Shown here: piece by piece, positions 1 through 16,629 of the stretch
Numbering within the stretch: position 1 is the stretch's first letter
Layout: every line of letters starts with the position of its first letter
Origin: a virus
Lineage: Duplodnaviria > Heunggongvirae > Uroviricota > Caudoviricetes
Virus record (IMG/VR): IMGVR_UViG_2534681675_000024
DNA: 16,949 nucleotides
Direction: 5' to 3' (one strand)
The notes under the pieces: model-generated
Seen by the model: only the letters and a program-made list of their open reading frames with translations
The model's database searches: none
Told to the model about the DNA's origin: nothing
Translations under genes and position numbers: made by a program

Positions 1-1269
1 ATGCCAAAACTCACAGATATGCAGATCCGCGCATGGATAAAGGCGGGAGACAGATTTGATGGCAAGGCAGACGGCAACGGCCTTTATATTTGCTACCCCA
101 AAAACTACACAGTCCCGTTCTGGCGATTCCGATATAAGCTCGCAGGAAAACAGCGGGCTATGGTTATCGGCTCTTACTCCGAACTGTCACTATCAAAAGC
201 CAGAGAAACAGCAAAAGAGCTGTCAGCCAGAGTTGCTCTTGGCTATGACGTAGCAGCAGAAAAACAGGAACGAAAAGCTGAAGCACTGGCAAAAATGGAG
301 GCTGAGAAAAACGCCATGCGCGTTTCAGATCTGGCCTCCGAATACTTCGAGCGCCAGATACTTCCGAGATGGAAACATCCCGATATCCTTCGCCGGAGAA
401 TTGATAAGGATATTAACCCCTGCATTGGGCATATGAAGGTAGAGGACGTTAAGCCACGCCACATTGACGACATGTTGAAAGGTATCGTTGACCGAGGAGC
501 ACCAACGATAGCAACAGATGTATTACGCTGGACACGCCGTATCTTTGACTATGGGATAAAACGCCACGCTCTGGAGATAAACCCTTGTTCAGCGTTTGAA
601 GTATCTGATGCTGGTGGTAAAGAGGTTTCCCGCGACCGTTGGCTAACTCGCGATGAGCTTATCAGGCTATTCGAGGCTATGCGCACCGCAAAAGGATTCA
701 GCCGCCAGAACGAACTGACATTTAAGCTATTGCTGGCACTATGCGTTCGTAAGATGGAGTTATGCGCCGCACGATGGGAAGAGTTTGATTTAGATGGTGC
801 GGTATGGCATTTGCCGGAAGAACGCAGCAAAAACGGAGACCCTATTGATATACCTCTACCTTCCCCAGCCGTTGAATGGTTGAGAGAGCTACACACCTTT
901 TCATGTAATAGCGCATGGGTGCTTCCAGCCAGGAAGATGCAAAACAGAATGATCCCACATATTCAGGAAAGCACTTTACCCGTAGCACTGGCTAAGGTTC
1001 GCGCCGAAATGCCGGATGTGCCTAATTTCACGATTCACGACTTCCGGCGTACCGCACGTACTCATTTAGCAGCATTGGGTGTTGATCCTGTCGTGGCGGA
1101 ACGATGCCTCAATCATCGCATTAAGGGTGTGGAGGGGATTTATAACCGCCATCAGTATTTTGATGAGCGTAAAGCTGCGCTGGCACAGTGGGCTGATCTG
1201 CTGGTGGCACTGGAAAGCGGGAAAGACTACAACGTAACGCCATTCGATAAAGCCCGGAGGCAAATGTGA
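1..1269 (+). CDS. int: Tyrosine site-specific integrase (P4 / CP4-57-like phage integrase family)
   Basis: 422-aa ORF starting at window position 1. The C-terminal region carries the tyrosine-recombinase catalytic pattern (HDFRRT, then HRIKGVEGIYNRHQY with the presumed nucleophilic Tyr). Size and N-terminal arm-binding region fit P4-type integrases. The att site and any tRNA lie upstream, outside the window. Confidence 0.93.
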   Translation: MPKLTDMQIRAWIKAGDRFDGKADGNGLYICYPKNYTVPFWRFRYKLAGKQRAMVIGSYSELSLSKARETAKELSARVALGYDVAAEKQERKAEALAKMEAEKNAMRVSDLASEYFERQILPRWKHPDILRRRIDKDINPCIGHMKVEDVKPRHIDDMLKGIVDRGAPTIATDVLRWTRRIFDYGIKRHALEINPCSAFEVSDAGGKEVSRDRWLTRDELIRLFEAMRTAKGFSRQNELTFKLLLALCVRKMELCAARWEEFDLDGAVWHLPEERSKNGDPIDIPLPSPAVEWLRELHTFSCNSAWVLPARKMQNRMIPHIQESTLPVALAKVRAEMPDVPNFTIHDFRRTARTHLAALGVDPVVAERCLNHRIKGVEGIYNRHQYFDERKAALAQWADLLVALESGKDYNVTPFDKARRQM

Positions 1270-1916
1270 ACAACATCTTGAGAAAATCGCCAATCGAACG
1301 GCTTTGTTCATCTGTATCGATTACCCCTCATGAAATGGCTGTGGCCTTGGCTGGCCTAAACCCATCTATGCGCATTAGCGATGTGCCTGAGGAAAATTTC
1401 GAATATGTCGATTTTGTCAGAACTCATCTTGCCAGAGCTATCAAGGTGTACAGAGGTGAAAAAACTAGTAAAGACGAGCCTTGCCATGCCCTTGATATTT
1501 TCTTAGCTTCTTACCCATTTATTGACACAAATACACCAGAAATAATTGTTCAGAAAATATCAGAAGCGATTGATGATTTGCGTGGCACCAAGGGCTGGGA
1601 AGAAAAAGCCCGAAACCTTGGAGGACTCCAGTTAGTAAACTACATCAAAGAAACCAACCGCAGCGGACGTGGGCAGCATAGAAAGCAGGATGAGGAAAAC
1701 GGGACAATGAAAATGATGGGGTTGATAGTACATCTGCTGATAAAAAAATCAGGCTCATCTTCCTACATCCAAAATGGGAAACCTAATCGCACAGCTATAT
1801 ACCGTGACATAGAAACCTTAATCAAGGATGAAGGGATATCCCATAAAGGAATAGCAAAAGCCACATTCCTAGAAAAAATCTCACGGGCTTTATTAGCTGT
1901 CCACGATCTCGACTAA
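1266..1916 (+). CDS. Hypothetical protein (216 aa), AT-rich orphan gene between int and alpA
   Basis: ORF begins at GTG 1266, overlapping the int stop (ATGTGA), with an SD-like CGGAGG about 5 nt upstream. The first in-frame ATG is at 1335, so the start is uncertain. I recognise no domain. The gene is visibly more AT-rich than int and is followed by a long AT-rich intergenic region. Confidence 0.6.
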   Translation: MNNILRKSPIERLCSSVSITPHEMAVALAGLNPSMRISDVPEENFEYVDFVRTHLARAIKVYRGEKTSKDEPCHALDIFLASYPFIDTNTPEIIVQKISEAIDDLRGTKGWEEKARNLGGLQLVNYIKETNRSGRGQHRKQDEENGTMKMMGLIVHLLIKKSGSSSYIQNGKPNRTAIYRDIETLIKDEGISHKGIAKATFLEKISRALLAVHDLD

Positions 1917-2273
1917 TCACTTTTCACGCCCCTCCAAAGCAATGGCGGGGCATTACCTGTTTACCCATCTCCACCAGCATAGATAATTCTCGCCCAGCTA
2001 TTGCTATATCTGTTCGGCTTAGTTCATCTGTAATCACCCCATCTCTAAAAGATACGCCAGCTATCATTAGCCATTTTAAGCCATCATGAGCCATTATAAA
2101 CCGACTCAACCAATTGAATAATAAAAGATAAAAAGAAATGTAAAAACATGATGAATGACGATGAAAGATATAACTCTTTGATAAAACAATGATTTTTTAA
2201 ACTGGTAACTAATTGAAAATAAAGAAAATAATTATCCCACCTGCATTTGCAATCTTTCAGTGGATCGGCATTT

Positions 2274-2306
2274 TTTCAATAGATTTATAATTTCTTTCAA
2301 TAGATT
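2274..2306 (+). promoter_or_regulatory. Candidate promoter/operator upstream of alpA: TATAAT flanked by two TTTCAATAGATT direct repeats
   Basis: The 12-bp motif TTTCAATAGATT occurs at 2274-2285 and 2295-2306 (21-bp spacing), bracketing a perfect TATAAT hexamer at 2286-2291, about 95 bp upstream of the alpA ATG. No good -35 hexamer is evident. Confidence 0.4.
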
Positions 2307-2386
2307 CTAGTCTTAATAGAAATACTGTATGGGCAACCACTAAACTTTAAGTAACTTCATGAGCTATCAGAGAGGTTACTAGAGAT

Positions 2387-2605
2387 ATGACAGCACACAA
2401 GCCAGCATCATCAGCTATCCCAACAACTGGATACATCCGTCGCTTTCGCATGCCGGAATTGCTAGGTGTTTCACTGCCTACTATTGATAGATGGGTTAAA
2501 AATGGCACTCTTCCACGCCCAGTGAAGCTAACAGATAACGTGACTGCGTTTGATGCGGTGGAAATTAATAACTGGCTGGCAGAACGCCGCGGGAAGGTGG
2601 CCTGA
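2387..2605 (+). CDS. alpA: AlpA-family helix-turn-helix transcriptional regulator (phage excisionase/activator-like)
   Basis: 72-aa ORF with the AlpA-type HTH segment RMPELLGVSLPTIDRWVKNGTLPRPVKL. Its stop overlaps the next gene's start (TGATG). Position just downstream of int is typical of AlpA in P4-like and PICI-like elements. Confidence 0.85.
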   Translation: MTAHKPASSAIPTTGYIRRFRMPELLGVSLPTIDRWVKNGTLPRPVKLTDNVTAFDAVEINNWLAERRGKVA

Positions 2606-4054: not shown

Positions 4055-5082
4055 TACCCGTCCAGAAGAAGACATTTTCACTGGCTGGTATGTCTCCAAA
4101 ATCCAGCAATATGACGGCAAAGTCAGGCATTAATACAGCAGATACAAGCAAAGTTTATCATTTGCTGGTGGTCGGAACGGATGCCTTAACCATGCCAGAA
4201 ATCTCGGGCGATGATATTAGCGTTGAGAAGGTCAGCGGCTGCGCCAGAGAATTTCTGGTCGTAGATGACCTGTTCTGCTCGCGTAGTGACTCCACAAAAA
4301 TCTTCGTCCACGCGCGTGACGTTAACGAAATGAGCGCGATGTACTGTGCTTCTGGTGCTTCCAATAGCGAGTTTTCGGAGTCCATAAAAAAGAGCTTGCC
4401 GTTATGCGGCAACACGGTTTATGGTTATAAGGCACCTCATAAAACGGGTGCCGGGATTGGCCTCCCGCTGGAGTTATCGGCGATACATGACGCGCCAGCG
4501 TCTTTTTTTGTATCGGCGCACACGCACACCTTATCAATGGTGGGCTGTATGGGGCTACCTTCGGGTAGGCTGGTTTCCGATAACGCCAGTAAGGCCAACT
4601 CCGTACAGTCCACCGCCAGCAAGATTGGTCTCTTCTGCGGTGGTTATAACAAGCCAACGTTATCGGAGGATGCCACATGCTGGCTACTACCCCTACCCAA
4701 AAACCGCAATTTATCTGGATTATCGCCGCAGTTCGCCGCGATTGCCCGACAATTACCGCCAAAATTCATCATATTGCTGCCGAGTCTGAACGCGATGCTC
4801 GCCGTTCTCTGGTGCGCGATCACGTCTGCTTTTTTGCTGGTCGTATCCGCATGGAGGTGGCACATGATTAAAACCTACGATGTGCATATGGACCCCCTCG
4901 AACGCACAAGCCAGATCATCACACTGACAGAAGTGATTAATGACATTCTGGTGAGCAACTCTCCCTCACGAGACGAAAAACTGAAGGCGTTACTCGCGAT
5001 ATTGGATCTCGCCGTTCGTGACGTTCATTTCCTGCTGGAAGGTGGCGAAATGCCAGTAAAACGGGGGGCAACCAATGAATAA
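4051..5082 (+). CDS. Uncertain long ORF (343 codons); possibly several short genes or a partly non-coding leader
   Basis: The frame is open for 343 codons and has a good SD (GGAGG, 7 nt before ATG 4051). However, the first ~270 residues are unusually Ser/Cys/Trp-rich, the frame contains a terminator-like hairpin plus T7 run (4489-4509), and two internal starts have strong SDs: 4677 in another frame (GGAGGA) and 4864 in-frame (GGAGGTGG). Confidence 0.35.
4489..4509 (+). terminator. Terminator-like hairpin (GACGC-GCCA-GCGTC) followed by T7
   Basis: A 5-bp GC stem with a 4-nt loop is followed immediately by TTTTTTT. The stem is short, so function is uncertain. It lies inside the dubious 4051-5082 ORF. 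Confidence 0.3.
4864..5082 (+). CDS. Small hypothetical protein (72 aa), alternative in-frame start within the 4051-5082 ORF
   Basis: A strong SD (GGAGGTGG, 4853-4860) sits 3 nt before ATG 4864. The downstream sequence has ordinary helical-protein composition, and its stop overlaps the next start (ATGAATAA at 5075). Confidence 0.4.
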   Translation: MIKTYDVHMDPLERTSQIITLTEVINDILVSNSPSRDEKLKALLAILDLAVRDVHFLLEGGEMPVKRGATNE

Positions 5083-6354: not shown

Positions 6355-8706
6355 ATGCGAAACATTGATCTTATCCGTCAGGTTATCAGTGCGTCTGAAA
6401 ACAACTGGCCTCATGTGCTGGGCTGTCTGAACATAAATGTCCCTGACTCTCCGCGCCGTCATGCTCCCTGCCCTGCATGTGGGGGCAAAGATCGATTCCG
6501 GTTCGACGACAACGGGCGCGGTAGCTTCATCTGTAATCAGTGCGGCGCTGGTGATGGGCTGGATTTAATTAAACGCGTAAATAACTGCGACACAACAGAG
6601 GCGGCGCTTCTTGCCGCTGATGTTCTGGGTATTGATTACCGGACAACGGAAACACCAGAAGCCACCAGCCAGAAACGGGAACAACTGGAAACCGAGCGCC
6701 AGCGACGCGAACAGGAGCGCCTGAAAAGGGCAGAGAAGGACGAACAACAAAGACGGGATACGTTTTCCCGTCAGTTTGATGACATGCGCAGAAAGGCTGT
6801 AAACGGCAAATCTGATTATCTGGTTGCGAAAGGGGTAGGTGATTTTACATTCCCCGTGTTGCCAGATGGATCTCTGTTGCTGGCGCTGGTGGATAAATCC
6901 GGCGCAGTCACAGCAGCACAGACTATTACCTCACATGGTGAAAAAAGACTCCTGACAGGTTCAGCAAAGCGGGGGGCGTATCACGCCATAAACGCACAGA
7001 AACGACCTCACAGCATCATAATTGCTGAGGGTGTGGCTACCGCCCTGTCGTGCCATTTAATTCGCCCTGACGCAATGACAGTGGCAGCAATCGACGCTGG
7101 CAACCTGTTGCCAGTAGCGGAAGTCATGCGCAGAACATATCCACAGGCACAAATCATCATTGCCGCAGATAACGATCACCAGCAAGGAAACTCCGAAAGT
7201 GGAGGGATCAACACGGGGAAAGATGCCGCAGAGAGGGCCGCTATTTCCGTAGCTGGCTGGGTGTCTCTGCCACCGACTGACTATAAAGCCGACTGGAACG
7301 ACTATCACCAACAACACGGGCTGGCGGCAGCCACAGCAGCATTTAAAGATTCGATGTACCAGCCACGGGGGAAAGGGGCGCAGGTGAAAAATCACAAACA
7401 GTCAGTCGGGGCGCTTAATGAGATCAGTTCTGGCGAGGTGTTAAGCGATGATGAAATTGCTGTCCTCAAAGAAATCAACCGGACGTTTACGCATGTCACC
7501 ATCGGCGGGAAACACAAGGTGGTGTCGCTAAAGCCTTCTCAAACCGGCGGTGTATCGCACGTTTTCGAGGATTTATCACAATTTCAGCATTATTTTCATC
7601 ATAAACCGAGAGTCGCCAGAAAGCTGGCGGGATCGGCGTGGCTGTCATGGAGTGGGAAGAACTACAAGCCAGGAGGCGTAGGATTTTATCCAGTACCAGA
7701 CAAATGCCCTGACGATGTTTTTAATCTGTATGAGGGGCTGGCACTGGAACCAATTGAAGGAGATTGCACGGTATACCTTAATCACCTGTTGCAGGTTGTC
7801 TGTGCCGGTAATGAAGAGGCATACCAATATCTTATCCAGTGGATGGCGCACATTATCCAAAAGCCTGATGAAAAACCGTCCGTGGCAATCGTGATGAAAT
7901 CTGTCCCGGGCACAGGGAAAGGCACAACGGTTAAACCGCTGCTGCAAATACTGGGGCAGTACGCCGCCCACATTAACGGGGCGGGACATATTTCAGGGCG
8001 CTTCAATTCAATACTTGCTAACAAGCTACTGGTATTTGCTGACGAAGTGACGATCCACAAGCCGTCTGAAGCTGACAGACTTAAAGCGATTATTAGCGAA
8101 CCGACGTTTAACCTTGAGCGCAAGGGAATTGATGCTGAACCAATGCCGAATTTTGCCCGGTTGATATTTGCCAGTAACAGCACACAGGTATTACAGGCGG
8201 GGATAAGAGAGCGCCGCTATCTCGTGCTTGAGCCATCTCCTGAAAAAGCACAGAGCCGGGAGTATTTTGATCGGCTGTACAGTTGGCTTAATGATGGCGG
8301 TGCCGCAAAGTTGCTTTGGCATCTTAAAGGGGTGGATCTCTCAGGTTTTGACCCTCAACGAGCGCCACAGACCGATGCCTTACGTGAAGAAATCTTGCTG
8401 GGGCTGTCTGGCGTTGAATTGTTTCTTTATGGCGAGCTAATCAATGAACCTCCGTTTAATGGCGAAGTCCGTTTGTTTGCAAAGGATATGGTTAGTCGAT
8501 TTGTAGCGTGGTCGCTTGAGCGTGGGGAAAAGCTTAAAGAGCCAGCAGCCAGATCACTACTGGGTAAATCACTTGCACAAATGGGGCTGGTGAAGCATGG
8601 AAGACCAGACCGAGGGAATGGCGTGTTCTACGAACTACCAGAGGTCGGAGTTCTACAGGCTGCGTTTGCCCGTCTGATCGGTATGGGGGGTTATGATGTT
8701 TTTTAA
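6355..8706 (+). CDS. Replicative primase-helicase (zinc-finger + Toprim primase domain, C-terminal P-loop NTPase; P4 alpha / D5-like)
   Basis: 783-aa ORF with a G-rich SD. It has an N-terminal zinc-binding pair (CPACGG ... CNQCG), a Toprim-like acidic core (IIIAEGVATALS and AADNDHQQGN), and a C-terminal Walker A-like loop (VPGTGKGTT) with a Walker B-like hhhhDE (LLVFADEV). Size is close to P4 alpha. Confidence 0.9.
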   Translation: MRNIDLIRQVISASENNWPHVLGCLNINVPDSPRRHAPCPACGGKDRFRFDDNGRGSFICNQCGAGDGLDLIKRVNNCDTTEAALLAADVLGIDYRTTETPEATSQKREQLETERQRREQERLKRAEKDEQQRRDTFSRQFDDMRRKAVNGKSDYLVAKGVGDFTFPVLPDGSLLLALVDKSGAVTAAQTITSHGEKRLLTGSAKRGAYHAINAQKRPHSIIIAEGVATALSCHLIRPDAMTVAAIDAGNLLPVAEVMRRTYPQAQIIIAADNDHQQGNSESGGINTGKDAAERAAISVAGWVSLPPTDYKADWNDYHQQHGLAAATAAFKDSMYQPRGKGAQVKNHKQSVGALNEISSGEVLSDDEIAVLKEINRTFTHVTIGGKHKVVSLKPSQTGGVSHVFEDLSQFQHYFHHKPRVARKLAGSAWLSWSGKNYKPGGVGFYPVPDKCPDDVFNLYEGLALEPIEGDCTVYLNHLLQVVCAGNEEAYQYLIQWMAHIIQKPDEKPSVAIVMKSVPGTGKGTTVKPLLQILGQYAAHINGAGHISGRFNSILANKLLVFADEVTIHKPSEADRLKAIISEPTFNLERKGIDAEPMPNFARLIFASNSTQVLQAGIRERRYLVLEPSPEKAQSREYFDRLYSWLNDGGAAKLLWHLKGVDLSGFDPQRAPQTDALREEILLGLSGVELFLYGELINEPPFNGEVRLFAKDMVSRFVAWSLERGEKLKEPAARSLLGKSLAQMGLVKHGRPDRGNGVFYELPEVGVLQAAFARLIGMGGYDVF

Positions 8707-8730: not shown

Positions 8731-8840
8731 TTTTTACCTGTACCACCTATACCACTTTGCTAATTCAGTATTAAAAACAGTGCGTTATAGTGGTACAGGT
8801 CAATATCTTACCTATACCAGACCTGTACCACCTATACCAT
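8731..8840. repeat. Iteron-like repeat cluster 1, immediately 3' of the primase-helicase gene (candidate ori)
   Basis: CCTGTACCACCTATACCA occurs at 8737-8754 and 8822-8839. An inverted copy TGGTACAGGT lies at 8791-8800 and an extra CCTATACCA at 8811-8819. The same core family recurs in cluster 2. Confidence 0.6.
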
Positions 8841-9845: not shown

Positions 9846-9949
9846 TGGTACAGGTCTGTACAGGTGGGGAGAGGTCATTTTTACCCACCTGTACCACCTA
9901 CAGGCCGCGTCACACAAGGGTTTGTGACATGGTGGTACAGGTGGTACAG
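9846..9949. repeat. Iteron-like repeat cluster 2 (same family as cluster 1) plus a GTCACA-N8-TGTGAC palindrome
   Basis: TGGTACAGGT at 9846-9855, CTGTACAGGTGG at 9856-9867, ACCTGTACCACCTA at 9887-9900, and tandem inverted GGTGGTACAGGTGGTACAG at 9931-9949. A palindrome GTCACACAAGGGTTTGTGAC lies at 9909-9928. TTTTTACC precedes the repeat in both clusters. Confidence 0.6.
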
Positions 9950-10442: not shown

Positions 10443-10616
10443 ATGGCTATTTCAGTAAAGCCAGTATTGATAAGTGAGAAGCAAATGGAAGCGATAAAGA
10501 AAATTCAGGAGGAGCAGCGTAAAAAATCAGAGGTAGGAGTTGCGCCAACGATCCACGAAATTGCTCGGGGATTAATGGATAAGGCGCTGGCTTACACTTT
10601 AACTGGACGTGGGTAA
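10443..10616 (+). CDS. Small hypothetical protein (57 aa), first gene of a three-gene operon
   Basis: Not in the supplied ORF track (below its length threshold). ATG 10443 is preceded by a strong SD (AAGGGGG). The stop at 10614-10616 lies 4 nt before the next ATG (10621). Helical composition; a regulatory role is only a guess. Confidence 0.5.
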
Positions 10617-10620
10617 ATTT

Positions 10621-12087
10621 ATGGCTACTTGGCAACAAGGAATCAACTCAGGCGGTTTTCTGGCTGGCATCGGTACGCAAAATGAGAATGCGCCAAAGGC
10701 AAGCGACATTAACGCAACGCTTGGTCTGATCCGCGAAAACAATGAACTGGCTCGCTCAGGTGCAAATAACGTTGGTCTGACCGCGTTACGTGGTCTGGCT
10801 GGAGTTGCTGATATTTATAAGCAGGAACAGCAACAGAAAGCGATTAATGCGTTCAATAAGGTTCACGCTGATGCATGGGCTTCTGGTGATCCATCGGGAC
10901 TATTTAAGTTTGCCCAGGAAAATCCAGCGTTTGTTGCACAGGTACAACAGGCGTTTTCTGGTCTTAATGATCAGCAACGCAACGATATGGGCGATTTAGC
11001 CATGAGGGCTAACGTCGCTCTTTCTCAGGGACCGGAAGCCTACAGTAAATTCATTACTGACAACAAGGACAGGTTAAATCGCGTTGGTGCTAATGCTGAC
11101 TGGATGATTCAGACAGGTATCCAGAATCCAGAGCAGCTATCACACATGCTGACTACTATGTCTCTCGGTGCGCTTGGACCAGAAAAGGCGTTTGCTGTTC
11201 AGGATAAGATGGTTGGTCGTGAGATTGACCGAGGCCAGCTGGCAGAGACAATCCGCAGCAATAAGGCTGGAGAGGCACTTCAGGCGAGAGGGCAGGATAT
11301 TAGCCGAGCAAATGCGTTAACGTCAGCATATGCACCAACAGCCGCAATGCAGAATTACAATCAGTACGCGCAAATGTTAAAGGCGGACCCAGAGGGGGCG
11401 GCGGCATTTGCGGCAGCGGCTGGAATTAATACAAACGCCAAAAAATTAATGAGTGTTAGAGAAAACGATGATGGCACTGTCACAAAATACTACACAGACG
11501 GAAGTGAAGAGCAGGGAAAACTAAACCAGCCAATATCTGGAGATGGGTTTCGTCCAATAGCTTTGCCAACAGCCCAAAAGATCATGGAAAAGTCGCCAGA
11601 AGGGGCTAAAAAAGCTGCTGGATTTGCATACAGGGTTAGGGATGCTCTTGATTCAATAGATACACTGAAAGACCAGCTTAGCCCACAGCGAGTGGCGATC
11701 ATTAATAATGCTTTGGGTAATGGGACGCTGGCTAACTTAACGCTCAGCCCAGCAGAGCAGCAATACGTTGTTAATGCTAATGACGCAATAATGGCAATAC
11801 TCCGTCAGGAAACAGGGGCATCTATCCTACCAGCTGAAATGTCCAAATATTATCAAATGTATTTCCCTCAGCCTGGTGATTCCACAAAAACCATTGATAC
11901 CAAGCGCCGGAAGATGGAAAACCAGTTCAATTCGCTGAAAGCTGCTTCTGGTCGAGCTTATGATGCTTTGCGGGTTATTTCAGCAGTTGACAGAGGAACT
12001 TCTTCTTCGTCGCAGACATTGCCGCAATCTGAGCAGGTATCACAGCCAGCAGCCAGCAGTAATTTTTCTTCACTATGGGGTGATTAA
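10621..12087 (+). CDS. Large hypothetical protein (488 aa), Cys-free, Ala/Gln/Asn/Gly-rich, predicted mostly alpha-helical
   Basis: ATG 10621 chosen over the track's 10609. No Cys, few aromatics, Q/A-rich low-complexity stretches, and no enzymatic motif I can identify. Its stop overlaps the next start (TAATG). Confidence 0.8.
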
Positions 12088-14192
12088 TGGCTAAAGCATG
12101 GAAAGATGTTATCGCTTCTCCACAGTATCAGGCGTTAGCACCAGAACAAAAAGCGCAGGCTCAGGAGCAATACTTCAATGAAGTCGTGGCCCCGCAAGCC
12201 GGAGAAAGTGTAGAGCAGGCTAAGCAGGCTTTTTATGCTGCCTATCCACTACCATCAACGAATGAAATAAACCGATCCCAATCAGCAACTCAAAATATTC
12301 AACATACATCATCTGATAATTCTCTTGCGTCAGGGTATGCAAAGTTAGCTACTCAGCAAAGAGAGGGGCTTGAGCGTTCAGCAGAACAGGGAGCCAGTCT
12401 TGGGGCTGCGATGCGCGATGCTATAACAGGCGAAAGCCGAATGACTCCAGAGATGGAGAGACTGCAAAATGTCGACCTTGCCCCAGAGTTAACCTCACTC
12501 AGCATGGATGCTCTAAAAGCTCGATGGTCTCAACTTTTCGGCTCTGACGCATCTCAGGAAAAGATTCTTCAGAGCATGGGAGCGAAATTAAGGCAGGATG
12601 AGAAGGGTAACACTATCGTTTCCCTGCCATCCGGTGATTATGCTCTGAACAAGCCGGGTTTATCGCCGCAAGACGTGGCATCGTTTCTGGCTAATGCGCT
12701 GGCGTTTACACCAGCGGGCAGGGCTGGAACGGTGCTTGGTGCCATAGGAAAATCAGCAGCTACAGATTTAGCACTACAGGGAGCCACCAGCCTTGCTGGT
12801 GGAGAAGATATTGATCCGTTACAAACGGTAATTTCTGCTGGCATTGGTGGTATTGGTAAGGGGCTGGAAAATACAGCGAGTGCGGTTTCGAGGGCTGTTC
12901 GTGGTGATATGTCGCCTGAAGCAAAGGCTGCTGTCGACTTTGCATCGGAAAGAAATCTGCCGTTAATGACCAGTGACATGCTGAAAGATAAAACCTTTAT
13001 GCAGAGTCAGGCTCAGACATTAGGCGAAAGAGTTCCTTTTTTTGGAACCGGTAAGAATCGGCTGAATCAACAACAAGCACGAGAAAATTTAGTCAGAACA
13101 TTTAGCGATGGTCTGGGGGGAATTTCAGATAAACAGCTTTATGAGTCTGCGACTAAAGGGCAGCAAAAATTCATTGAGGCAGCAGGAAAGCGATATAACC
13201 GCATAATTGACGCTATGGGGGATACCCCTGTCGATCTCTCAAACACGGTAAAAACTATCGACAATCAGATTGCCGTGTTAAGCCGCCCTGGCAAATCTCA
13301 GGATAGAGCCGCGGTAAAAGTCTTGCAGCAATTTAAAGACGATATCACCAGCGGACCAAATGACCTGCGTCTGGCGAGGGAAAACAGAACCGATCTTCGA
13401 AAGCGATTTATAGCGTCATCTGACACTGTTGATAAAGATACGCTCCAGAAAGCCAGCGATATTATCTACAAGGCATATACGGCGGATATGAAAAAAGCCG
13501 TAGCCAAAAATCTTGGAGCAGACGAAGCCATTAATATGGCAAGGGTTGATCGCTCATGGTCTAAATTCAATGACATGATGGGAAGAACGCGCGTTCAAAA
13601 GGCAATAGCCAGCGGCAAGGCCACGCCTGAGGATGTAACAAAACTCGTTTTTAGCCAAAGCCCATCAGAACGTTCTCAGCTTTACAGGCTTCTGGATGAC
13701 AATGGTAGGCAAAACGCACGAGCAGCTATAGTTCAGAATGCTGTAGATAAGGCGACTGATCCGTCTGGAAATATCAGTGTTGAGAAGTTTATTAATGCGT
13801 TACACCGGAACAGGAAGCAATCAGCAACTTTCTTTAAAGGCGTACATGGAAAGGAACTGGACGGCGTTATTAAATACCTCAACGATACAAGACACGCGGC
13901 AAAAGCGAACGTTCAAAACTTAAATGGTCAGCAGCTTTATGGATTGTTAGTTGGTGGTGGCATCATAAACGCAGCAGTATTAGCGGGGATGCTAAAAACG
14001 GCTGCGTTTGTTGTTCCTGCTGCTGGTGCCGTAGGCGGAGCAGCGAAGGCATACGAAAGCCCTGTTATACGAAATGCCTTGTTACGTCTGGCAAATACGC
14101 CAAAAGGTAGCACAGCATATGACAGAGCGATCAGTACGGTCACACAATCGCTCACCAGAGTCGCACAGGCATCACAAAAAGAATCTCAATAA
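12087..14192 (+). CDS. Large hypothetical protein (701 aa), Cys-free, helical, with a C-terminal Gly/Ala-rich hydrophobic hairpin
   Basis: Long uninterrupted ORF coupled to the upstream gene. The segment LYGLLVGGGIINAAVLAGMLKTAAFVVPAAGAVGGAAKAY (about nt 13934-14056) looks like a membrane-insertion hairpin. GIGKG and GAIGKS do not fit true Walker A spacing. Confidence 0.85.
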   Translation: MAKAWKDVIASPQYQALAPEQKAQAQEQYFNEVVAPQAGESVEQAKQAFYAAYPLPSTNEINRSQSATQNIQHTSSDNSLASGYAKLATQQREGLERSAEQGASLGAAMRDAITGESRMTPEMERLQNVDLAPELTSLSMDALKARWSQLFGSDASQEKILQSMGAKLRQDEKGNTIVSLPSGDYALNKPGLSPQDVASFLANALAFTPAGRAGTVLGAIGKSAATDLALQGATSLAGGEDIDPLQTVISAGIGGIGKGLENTASAVSRAVRGDMSPEAKAAVDFASERNLPLMTSDMLKDKTFMQSQAQTLGERVPFFGTGKNRLNQQQARENLVRTFSDGLGGISDKQLYESATKGQQKFIEAAGKRYNRIIDAMGDTPVDLSNTVKTIDNQIAVLSRPGKSQDRAAVKVLQQFKDDITSGPNDLRLARENRTDLRKRFIASSDTVDKDTLQKASDIIYKAYTADMKKAVAKNLGADEAINMARVDRSWSKFNDMMGRTRVQKAIASGKATPEDVTKLVFSQSPSERSQLYRLLDDNGRQNARAAIVQNAVDKATDPSGNISVEKFINALHRNRKQSATFFKGVHGKELDGVIKYLNDTRHAAKANVQNLNGQQLYGLLVGGGIINAAVLAGMLKTAAFVVPAAGAVGGAAKAYESPVIRNALLRLANTPKGSTAYDRAISTVTQSLTRVAQASQKESQ

Positions 14193-14211: not shown

Positions 14212-14826
14212 TTAAATATCTCTGCTGTCTCCATTAGGAAATAAAAGATAATATGGATTTGCCTTTCTTGCTCTCCTTGCTTCACCTGGATACCTGTTAG
14301 TCAGTAGCTTGCATAATGAGCAGAGAACAACACTCAAGAAAATTCCGAATGAGAAGATCAATATCTCACCAAAAATCAATGGCGATATTAAATTTTCAGG
14401 ATTTAATGATAAGTCAATGTTAAAAACATATTGAGCAATACCAGTAAGTATCAATAATATAATCCCTATGGAATACATTGCTGTTTCCCAAACATCAGAC
14501 AGTCTATTTTTGAATTTTTCGCTGGAGTAGTAGTTTGTTATAAAGTCAGAAAAATCACTCTCATATGCATCATCTTTAGGTGATGTTAGAAATCCTCTGT
14601 CTCTCCATACCTTCTCCCAATTAGTCGATTCTTTTTTTAAGGAAAAATAAATATGTATTGCCAAAAGGATAGCCAAAATTGGTGTTAGCTCTAAAAAATA
14701 GAATGTTATGGAATAAATAATACTGCCATGTTCAAACTCATCTGGGACTATCATGTATGCACAAAAATAAATTGAAAAGTACACCATGCAGATAGTTAGC
14801 AATTCTTTAGTATCTTTTCTGCTCAC
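14212..14826 (-). CDS. Integral membrane protein (about 204 aa, four predicted TM helices), strongly AT-rich
   Basis: Four hydrophobic stretches of about 20 residues each, with a basic C-terminal tail (RRARK). GTG start at 14826 is preceded by SD AAGGGGG; an alternative ATG is at 14787. The gene is markedly AT-rich relative to its neighbours and converges on the 701-aa gene with only 19 bp between stops. Confidence 0.8.
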   Translation of the reverse strand: MSRKDTKELLTICMVYFSIYFCAYMIVPDEFEHGSIIYSITFYFLELTPILAILLAIHIYFSLKKESTNWEKVWRDRGFLTSPKDDAYESDFSDFITNYYSSEKFKNRLSDVWETAMYSIGIILLILTGIAQYVFNIDLSLNPENLISPLIFGEILIFSFGIFLSVVLCSLCKLLTNRYPGEARRARKANPYYLLFPNGDSRDI

Positions 14827-16082: not shown

Positions 16083-16183
16083 ATCAGTGAGTAATATCCA
16101 TACAGTATACCACTGTATAACACTGTTATACGCTCAAATATCAGCCAGAAAATAACAGACCAATCACAAATCTATCGCTGTGT

Positions 16184-16306
16184 TGTTGGTTCAGAGCTGG
16201 GCTGTGTTGGTTCAAAATGAGTTGATGTTGGTTCAATATTTTAGAAAAAACACAATAAAAACAACGCTCTTTACAAATTGAACCAACTGAACCAACTGAA
16301 CCAACA
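16184..16306. promoter_or_regulatory. Operator/iteron array: three TGTTGGTTCA direct repeats at 21-bp spacing plus three tandem inverted TGAACCAAC copies
   Basis: Direct copies at 16184-16193, 16205-16214 and 16226-16235. After an AT-rich spacer, TGAACCAAC repeats sit at 16279-16287, 16288-16296 and 16297-16305. A TATAAT hexamer at 16323-16328 and SD GAGAGG precede the perC-like ATG. Confidence 0.7.
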
Positions 16307-16341: not shown

Positions 16342-16629
16342 ATGATAAAGGACAGGAAAGCTGAAGAGCTGGAGTCAAAAGGGCTATACCGGAGAGCTGC
16401 CGCGCGATGGGCAGAAGTCATGATGCTGGCAGATGGCGATAAAGAACGTGAACATGCAGCAAACAGACGCTCTGAATGTATCCGTAAGGCGGCACGCCCA
16501 CCAGCAACTACAGACAGATTCGGAGATTTAAGACAGGCAGTTAAGCGGACTCATTCGGCTCTTGGTATGGATGAGGAAGCGAGAGGGTACTTCAGGCGTT
16601 ATCGCGATAAAGATTGCCAGAGACAGTAA
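16342..16629 (+). CDS. PerC-family transcriptional regulator-like protein (95 aa)
   Basis: Size and the N-terminal motif ESKGLYRRAAARWAEVM resemble PerC/Pch-family regulators known from EPEC/EHEC plasmids and prophages. TATAAT and an SD lie upstream. Confidence 0.7.
   Translation: MIKDRKAEELESKGLYRRAAARWAEVMMLADGDKEREHAANRRSECIRKAARPPATTDRFGDLRQAVKRTHSALGMDEEARGYFRRYRDKDCQRQ

Follow-up and report, generated by a model that had tools for sequence, protein, structure and literature searches.

A gene between int and alpA of an Escherichia coli phage satellite and the exchangeable segment that carries it

The element and its 216-residue protein

We analyzed a stretch of 16,949 nucleotides from IMG/VR virus record IMGVR_UViG_2534681675_000024 (hereafter, the window), and in particular a gene for a protein of 216 amino acids (aa) that lies between the integrase gene, int, and the regulatory gene alpA. 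The window is a single integrative element: it is an EcCIMP1-like phage-inducible chromosomal island (PICI), that is, a satellite of E. coli phages. Near-identical DNA (99.5% identity) is placed between yicC and dinD in E. coli chromosomes. int (1..1269, plus strand) encodes a 422-aa P4-type tyrosine integrase (Pfam Arm-DNA-bind_3, Phage_int_M, and Phage_integrase), which sets the attachment on the yicC side. RefSeq annotates int directly after yicC in one copy (L001; we denote the loci that we compared by L numbers), with the start of int 189 bp past yicC, and the element stops before dinD. The genes that follow int are, in order, the 216-aa gene, alpA (2387..2605, plus strand), a PM1773-family protein, AntA, DUF4222, ash, a primase, ejection-protein homologues, a SieA-like gene, and PerC. 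The product of alpA is a master regulator of 72 aa from the AlpA family (Pfam Phage_AlpA), and the primase gene lies downstream of it (6355-8706; domains Zn_Ribbon_Prim, Toprim_3, and DUF5906). Thus, the element has the layout of a PICI: int is at one end, by the chromosomal attachment site, and an AlpA-family regulator is followed by a primase/replicase. Its size (about 17 kb) is within the roughly 10-20 kb of PICIs, and it does not contain a full set of capsid, tail, and lysis genes. The only phage-structural content is the ejection-protein homologues, as in EcCIMP1.

EcCIMP1 is a PICI of E. coli MP1 that is mobilized by the P22-like phage Kapi1, and induction of its excision, replication, and packaging by the helper phage has been shown experimentally (Pick et al., ISME J 2025, PMC11773190). 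Its alpA is the helper-induced master regulator, and a fragment with the alpA promoter (-449 to +50) responds to the helper phage (PMC11773190). The window and EcCIMP1 share the backbone from alpA to PerC (PM1773-family protein, AntA, DUF4222, ash/icd, primase, P22-type ejection-protein homologues, and PerC), and the PM1773-family protein of a sibling of the window, L003, is the same RefSeq protein as that of EcCIMP1 (WP_000412531.1). Both elements also have the layout int-X-alpA, with an interval of roughly 430-470 bp. However, EcCIMP1 has another integrase and another attachment site (tRNA-Thr near proA, instead of yicC-dinD), and its interval between int and alpA is almost non-coding, with only a small open reading frame (ORF), EcCIMP1_002, which RefSeq does not annotate. 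EcCIMP1 contains neither the 216-aa gene nor the TTCAATGGAA repeat array that we describe below.

The 216-aa gene (1266..1916, plus strand; RefSeq WP_001059729.1) has a GTG start codon that overlaps the stop codon of int by 4 nt (ATGTGA). Reading the sequence, we found a ribosome-binding site, GGAGG, within the end of int (1256..1260, plus strand), with a spacing of 5 nt to the GTG at 1266. The overlap of start and stop suggests that the translation of the two genes may be coupled. The start is supported because homologues begin at the equivalent position, with either ATG or GTG, and residues 1-22 are conserved. The same 4-nt overlap is present in L006, L008, L010, L012, and L014/L015, while the family gene in L020 has one base in common with the int stop and those in L013 and L016/L017 start 1 nt past it. 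Among homologues, the nonsynonymous divergence (dN) is 0.09-0.34 and synonymous sites are saturated; therefore, the gene is real, and purifying selection acts on it.

The original prediction, which was made from the sequence of the window, described an AT-rich gene that overlaps the stop of int and is followed by about 470 bp of AT-rich non-coding DNA before alpA. The overlap is as predicted (1266..1916 versus 1..1269), and the gene is indeed more AT-rich than int (42.5% GC versus 49.6%), although only mildly so for this element. As fractions, the GC content is about 0.425-0.427 for the 216-aa ORF, 0.496 for int, 0.345 for the intergenic region (1917-2386), and 0.50 for alpA. Relative to all windows of 651 nt within the element, the ORF is at the 12th percentile and the intergenic region is at the 2nd percentile. 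The intergenic DNA has the predicted length and composition (470 bp at 34.5% GC), but it is not an empty spacer, as it holds repeats and the putative alpA promoter.

Searches with hidden Markov models did not identify any match to the 216-aa protein above the threshold in Pfam, or any match in NCBIfam or PADLOC. The only family match was to phrog_30524 of PHROGs v4 (E = 3e-34), which covers nearly the whole length of the protein (residues 11-209 versus profile positions 14-213 of 220) and is itself without functional annotation. A first structure model, built from 11 close sequences, was poor (predicted local distance difference test score of 63.5). A confident model had no structural neighbor, and a profile search of the sequences in the PDB returned 0 matches. 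As had been predicted, then, the protein has no domain that can be recognized by these sequence- or structure-based searches. It is all-helical and probably has two domains.

The family is small and is restricted to satellites. When 1.84 billion representative proteins (50% clustering) were searched exhaustively with a profile, only 35 relatives were found, and full-length members have 206-241 aa. The best-conserved stretches are TPE, LGG, SGRGxHRKxDE, and, at the C terminus, KPNxxxIYxDI...SxKGxxKSTFxxK. Family members are mostly basic, with an isoelectric point (pI) above 8 in 21 of 24 of them. As sequence features, the conserved stretches and the basic pI would neither prove nor exclude DNA binding.

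In all 14 loci that we inspected, the family gene overlaps or abuts the gene for a P4-type integrase or its remnant; the two overlap by up to 4 nt or are separated by at most 1 nt. This adjacency holds even for members at 21-28% identity, and in L018, the family gene adjoins a decayed int remnant of just 86 aa. The family was not seen in any other context among these loci. It spans three attachment sites (yicC, ssrA, and der) and two classes of satellites, and the hosts are E. coli (yicC and ssrA sites), Klebsiella, Buttiauxella (der site), Yersinia, and Serratia, along with one metagenomic contig. The family gene is also found in a packaged, capsid-forming PICI that was deposited as a phage (vB_KppS-Ant), which is the only record in the phage database with a homologue. 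A search of species-representative genomes gave just two family loci. The contig with L010/L011 (CACSKA010000004.1) is labeled "Chryseobacterium sp. 18061," yet the genes of this 430-kb contig are ordered as in enterobacteria (dut-slmA-pyrE-rph-yicC), and its satellite is of the E. coli type; this record looks mislabeled or contaminated.

An exchangeable segment between int and alpA

The original prediction also proposed that the space between int and alpA is a variable slot, and suggested aligning related elements that share both of these genes. In sibling elements at the same site (yicC), int is 96-99% identical over positions 1-1241, and the DNA on the alpA side is 92-98% identical from 2351/2415 on. 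Between these near-identical flanks, siblings L002, L003, and L004 carry unrelated slot proteins of 321, 293, and 281 aa, respectively, and each of these genes is followed by a hairpin and ends about 105-114 bp before alpA. So, the slot gene varies while the flanks are conserved, and the proposed slot is real. The 216-aa gene is not found in all of the related elements, and it does not have a clear core role.

On the left of the exchanged segment, the blastn identity with L002-L005 (96-99%) ends at 1241, which places the breakpoint at 1242, 24 nt before the stop of int. The right breakpoint lies in a zone at 2351..2415: identity resumes at 2351 in L003, which is within the alpA leader, and at 2415 in L002 and 2417 in L004, which are within the early codons of alpA. 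Hence the entire region upstream of alpA is included in the swapped segment, and the tail of int, the 216-aa gene, and the alpA control region are swapped as a unit.

Within E. coli, the 216-aa gene comes as distinct alleles. Among 5,426 complete genomes, 335 contain this integrase, with 266 records at 95% identity or above. The allele of the window (at least 99% identity) is present in 114 of these roughly 266 records, and another 91 records, mostly from O157, O145, and O111 strains, carry an allele that is about 70% identical; none are intermediate. The divergence of int and that of the 216-aa gene are discordant: to L006, their identities are 88% and 68%, and to L008, they are 64.5% and 71%.

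A slot at this end of the element is not new. The 5' end of PICIs has already been described as an accessory and immune region (Fillol-Salom et al., Cell 2022, as cited in PMC11364771; de Sousa et al., NAR 2023, PMC10085698). The published region resembles ours in its position between int and the regulator, in the exchange of its content between near-identical elements, and in having conserved core genes as its flanks. In the window, the corresponding interval (1266-2386) lies between int and the regulatory module, and its content differs between near-identical flanks. The differences are that we did not find a recognizable anti-phage system here (the 216-aa gene has no match in PADLOC, Pfam, or NCBIfam), that the occupant families are specific to the slot, and that the alpA control region is exchanged too. 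Among the alternative slot genes, there was one weak, sub-threshold PADLOC match (PDC-S31, E = 0.002, for the gene of L002). Thus, the original prediction holds only in part. The content of the slot is exchanged, but the 216-aa gene does not behave like free cargo: it matches no defense model, it has a single fixed position, and an array-bearing control region is swapped along with it.

Two other loci bear on which part of this region is variable. L013 and L018 have extra cargo between the family gene and alpA. In L013 (5995-9094), the cargo consists of three genes: one on the minus strand encodes 390 aa (phrog_8571), and the other two encode 179 aa (phrog_28020) and 130 aa, the last product resembling part of NAD-dependent DNA ligase. 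In L018 (5847-10319), there is a 1,490-aa protein with no match in PHROGs. In both of these loci, the family gene looks like a fixed part and the space downstream of it looks like the slot. L013 is an ssrA-site element, and downstream of its family gene (L013:5660-5735) are two copies of GTGAACA, which is the reverse complement of the core of the P4 type 1 origin repeat (TGTTCAC), as well as one related TGTGAA.

In E. coli and Pectobacterium, the main alternative slot family (L002:2856-3821 and L004:2856-3701) has the int-alpA interval as its only location. These proteins are conserved over about 45 aa at the N terminus and very conserved over about 75 aa at the C terminus (AERHAxNREKLFKSAIYLLSKYPDECRGERKEISPEKWRDCI...), and the roughly 180 aa in between are hypervariable. 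We considered whether the 216-aa family is homologous to the alternative families, as some stretches resemble each other by eye (HRKxDE..K..GLLI.LL versus ERHAxNREKLFKSAIYLLSKY, and YRDIETLIKDEGIS versus WRDCIVAHKDEIP). However, an hhalign comparison of family against family gave E = 0.05 with a probability of 1%, and sub-alignments of the C-terminal parts gave E = 0.3-0.4, so we rejected this idea.

Repeats in the alpA control region

The alpA control region (1917..2386; 470 bp) contains two sets of repeats. First, four tandem 10-nt repeats lie at 2059..2098 (plus strand). Their consensus is AGCCATNWTD, and the first copy, AGCTATCATT, is one base off. At the corresponding position, relatives carry 10-nt tandem repeats of their own. 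Second, three direct repeats of TTTCA[AG]T[AG]GAT lie closer to alpA on the plus strand: site 1, TTTCAGTGGAT, at 2255..2265; site 2, TTTCAATAGAT, at 2274..2284; and site 3, also TTTCAATAGAT, at 2295..2305. These are at about -92, -73, and -52, respectively, from the predicted transcription start. A degenerate fourth site that we read from the sequence, TTAATAGAAA (2313..2322, plus strand), lies over the predicted -35 position, and an equivalent element (..TGGAA/..TAGAA) is conserved in L006, L008, L010, L012, L014, L016, and L020. The putative -10 hexamer of the alpA promoter is TAAACT (2341..2346, plus strand). A strict promoter scan did not find it, and in the relatives that we aligned or inspected, it is conserved as TAAACT, TACACT, TAGAAT, or TAATCT.

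The array has the consensus TTCAATGGAA, with the symmetric core TCNATNGA, a spacing of 19-21 bp, and a matching distance to the start of alpA (-131 to -65). Three or four such sites are present in every locus where the family gene directly precedes alpA (8 of 8). These eight loci have three very different AlpA-type regulators, and their intergenic DNA is otherwise unalignable. Conversely, the array is absent from all seven of the loci with other slot content, including EcCIMP1 and L003, whose AlpA is 100% identical to that of the window. In other words, the presence of the array follows that of the family, not the type of AlpA. The motif occurs 6 times in the window, where 1.5 matches would be expected, and the count stayed below six in each of 200 shuffles.

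We considered other explanations for the repeats and for the AT-rich DNA. The repeats are not arm sites of the integrase, as they are about 2 kb from attL and are absent from siblings with 97-98% identical integrases. They are also unlikely to be binding sites for AlpA, given that the array is missing from L003, whose AlpA is identical, and is shared by loci with three dissimilar types of AlpA. An origin of replication is suggested by analogy to phage P4, in which the region upstream of vis (an AlpA homologue; NC_001609 annotation) is also long, AT-rich, and non-coding, with three tandem 10-nt "type 2" repeats and other short repeats. But P4 does not contain a gene of the 216-aa family, and its region is a replication origin that is bound by the alpha primase. 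In the window, candidate repeats for that role (ACCTRTACC) are instead at 8.7-9.9 kb, and there are none in 1917-2386, so we judged an origin in this region to be unlikely. The ACCTRTACC clusters, on both strands, are at 8736-8838 (6 copies, just past the primase gene) and 9847-9942 (3 copies); across the window there are 11 matches, versus 1.7 expected. By analogy to ori and crr of P4, they probably are the replication origin and a second cis site.

Little else was found in the intergenic region. Its ORFs are short and unconserved; the DNA under a 61-aa ORF that would start with TTG (1924-2109, minus strand), which RefSeq does not annotate, is poorly conserved. There was no match to any Rfam family in this region. 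The hairpin after the stop of the 216-aa gene is not a convincing terminator (z = -1.45), and a terminator scan found none. Within the alpA leader, 2350-2380 is conserved in all types of cassette and could form a hairpin (AGTAAC...GTTACT) that ends beside the ribosome-binding site; L002, L004, and L022 have an equivalent leader hairpin, CCGTAAC...GGTTACGG. L022, whose slot gene is a variant of the L002 family, has a short alpA leader with TTGTATATCTATACAG at about 4985-5000, upstream of alpA at 5058. This sequence is one base off the LexA-box pattern CTGT-N8-ACAG, a hint that in that type of cassette, alpA might be under the direct control of the SOS response.

Elsewhere in the window, two genes at 10609-14192 (plus strand) encode full-length homologues of P22-type ejection or DNA-transfer proteins (phrog_917 and phrog_770), which EcCIMP1 also has. 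A gene at 14212-14826 (minus strand) has a weak match to SieA-like superinfection exclusion proteins (E = 2e-4). Rfam matches at the gathering level to isrK (64 bits; 4432-4508, plus strand) and to the C4 antisense RNA (77 bits; 4533-4620, plus strand) fall within the annotated ash ORF, which places an immunity RNA module of the c4/icd type of P1, P7, and P4 on a satellite. Just upstream of the PerC-like gene (16342-16629) is a perfect tandem repeat of three copies of the 9-nt unit TGAACCAAC (16279-16305), and a 10-nt repeat, GTATAACACT, is present in 2.2 copies nearby (16105-16126).

Possible roles of the 216-residue protein

We tentatively favor the explanation that the 216-aa protein is a regulator, encoded by the satellite, that acts on the alpA promoter at the repeat array. 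The module would begin with the final 8 codons of int, would end at the alpA leader, and would comprise the gene, the AT-rich region, the 10-nt repeats, and the promoter array. The protein would be made together with the integrase while the satellite is resident; it would bind the array and set the timing of alpA switch-on, and hence of excision and the satellite's lytic program. We favor this reading because the family has a strict position and is restricted to satellites, because the array is tied to the family and not to AlpA, and because the sites are dyad symmetric and the proteins are mostly basic. The dyad-symmetric core TCNATNGA would fit a dimeric binder better than a monomeric protein of the Xis/AlpA type. 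DNA binding by the protein, its target, and the sign of its effect are what we infer here. As for the sign, the weak -35 under a site, with three phased sites upstream, looks like a factor-dependent promoter, so a repressor is no likelier here than an activator or co-factor that responds to the helper. The siblings with other slot genes, which have a short alpA leader preceded by a terminator, would be wired differently.

A known regulator to compare is Stl of the staphylococcal pathogenicity islands (SaPIs), a master repressor whose gene is next to int and differs greatly from one related island to another. The stl gene and the operon that Stl represses are divergently transcribed, and Stl has a recognizable helix-turn-helix domain. 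The 216-aa gene is likewise adjacent to int, and its product would control the lytic operon of the island and could set helper specificity. But the 216-aa gene is co-directional with alpA, and no helix-turn-helix was detected.

Several observations weigh against the proposed regulator. No DNA-binding domain was detected in the protein with Pfam or NCBIfam. It differs from repressors of the Stl or CI type in having no match to a helix-turn-helix model, no structural neighbor, and a gene that is not divergently transcribed. L013 and L018, which have the family gene with extra cargo, lack the array and have a different triple repeat, of the CCGGA type, instead. L024 has one perfect inverted copy of the motif but does not have the family gene, and therefore a host factor or another satellite factor could be the binder. 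The gene and the array are linked in one exchanged segment, so their co-occurrence could reflect linkage instead of function; also, the compared loci are related, so the counts for the array (8 of 8 and 7 of 7) are not independent. Finally, an activator that is constitutively co-expressed with the integrase is hard to reconcile with the resident state, unless the helper phage gates its activity.

A broader version of this proposal is rather unlikely. It holds that the int-alpA interval is a swappable cassette for regulatory specificity, and not a defense hotspot, and that the 216-aa family is the missing satellite-encoded regulator of Gram-negative PICIs, which have been described as activated by AlpA, with no known repressor (PMC11773190). 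In such a cassette, the protein would be made with the integrase, would recognize the array of phased TTCAATGGAA sites at the promoter of alpA, and would respond to a cue from the helper phage. The other slot families, among them the one whose central domain is hypervariable, would take the place of this protein as sensors. If so, exchange of the cassette would re-tune which helper phages can induce the satellite.

A close rival, which is possible but which we also doubt, is that the gene is accessory cargo in the immune region at the 5' end of the PICI. It would encode a single-gene anti-phage or helper-interference protein that is expressed with int while the satellite is resident and that blocks competing or superinfecting phages, and the turnover of the slot would reflect an arms race. 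This explanation rests mainly on the published prior for the location and on that turnover. The slot content differs between near-identical elements, the GC content of the gene is lower than that of its neighbors, and one of the alternative families combines conserved ends with a hypervariable middle, as is often seen in sensors that are under diversifying selection. Furthermore, EcCIMP1 confers superinfection immunity from a gene that was not identified (PMC11773190). Immune proteins of satellites can be without a recognized domain, as the Tai proteins are. However, the 216-aa gene does not have a match in PADLOC, and only one of the three alternatives has a sub-threshold one. Defense genes usually move between hotspots, prophages, and defense islands, while this family has never been seen away from this position. 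In L013 and L018, the extra cargo comes after the family gene, which makes the gene look like the fixed part and the space behind it like the slot, and the family is accompanied by a conserved promoter array.

The gene might instead be a passenger that is conserved yet dispensable and serves some other function, in which case the array would be unrelated to it and would be bound by AlpA, a host factor, or a protein of the helper phage; we consider this somewhat improbable. The protein gives no functional signal of any kind, the single perfect motif in L024 is present without the gene, and AlpA is a positive autoregulator in EcCIMP1. On the other hand, purifying selection and strict conservation of position down to 21% identity weigh against this reading, as does the array, which is absent from L003 despite its identical AlpA and is present with three unrelated types of AlpA.

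Last, the abutment of the gene with the integrase stop at every locus, even with the 86-aa remnant in L018, might be explained if the protein were a partner of the integrase (for instance, a co-factor for architecture or directionality, or a protein that holds the P4-type integrase inactive in the resident state), but this is quite improbable: integrases that are 97-98% identical at the protein level work in siblings without the gene, so int needs no such gene, whereas a directionality factor should be present wherever its integrase is; the excision requirement is already met by AlpA in the related EcCIMP1; known directionality factors are winged-helix proteins of about 60-100 aa, while this protein has 216 aa, no match to the Phage_AlpA, HTH_17, or excisionase models, and no structural match to folds of the Xis or AlpA type; and int and the gene have diverged discordantly.

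Overall, the type of element and its variable 5' region were already known, and the 216-aa gene is an uncharacterized member of that setting. The published view of how Gram-negative satellites are controlled has an activator, AlpA, and no repressor of the satellite's own. A slot-specific, integrase-adjacent family with a conserved promoter array is a directly testable candidate for control of alpA in these satellites. If the gene encodes an anti-phage protein instead, then it would add a single-gene system, with no recognizable domain and no structural relative, to the immune repertoire of PICIs. Because the family is found only at this slot, is always joined to an integrase, and is usually followed by conserved repeats at the alpA promoter, the gene may act in control rather than as ordinary cargo. 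Either way, int-proximal variable genes in satellites should not be labeled as cargo by position alone, as the unit that is exchanged includes the promoter of the master regulator.

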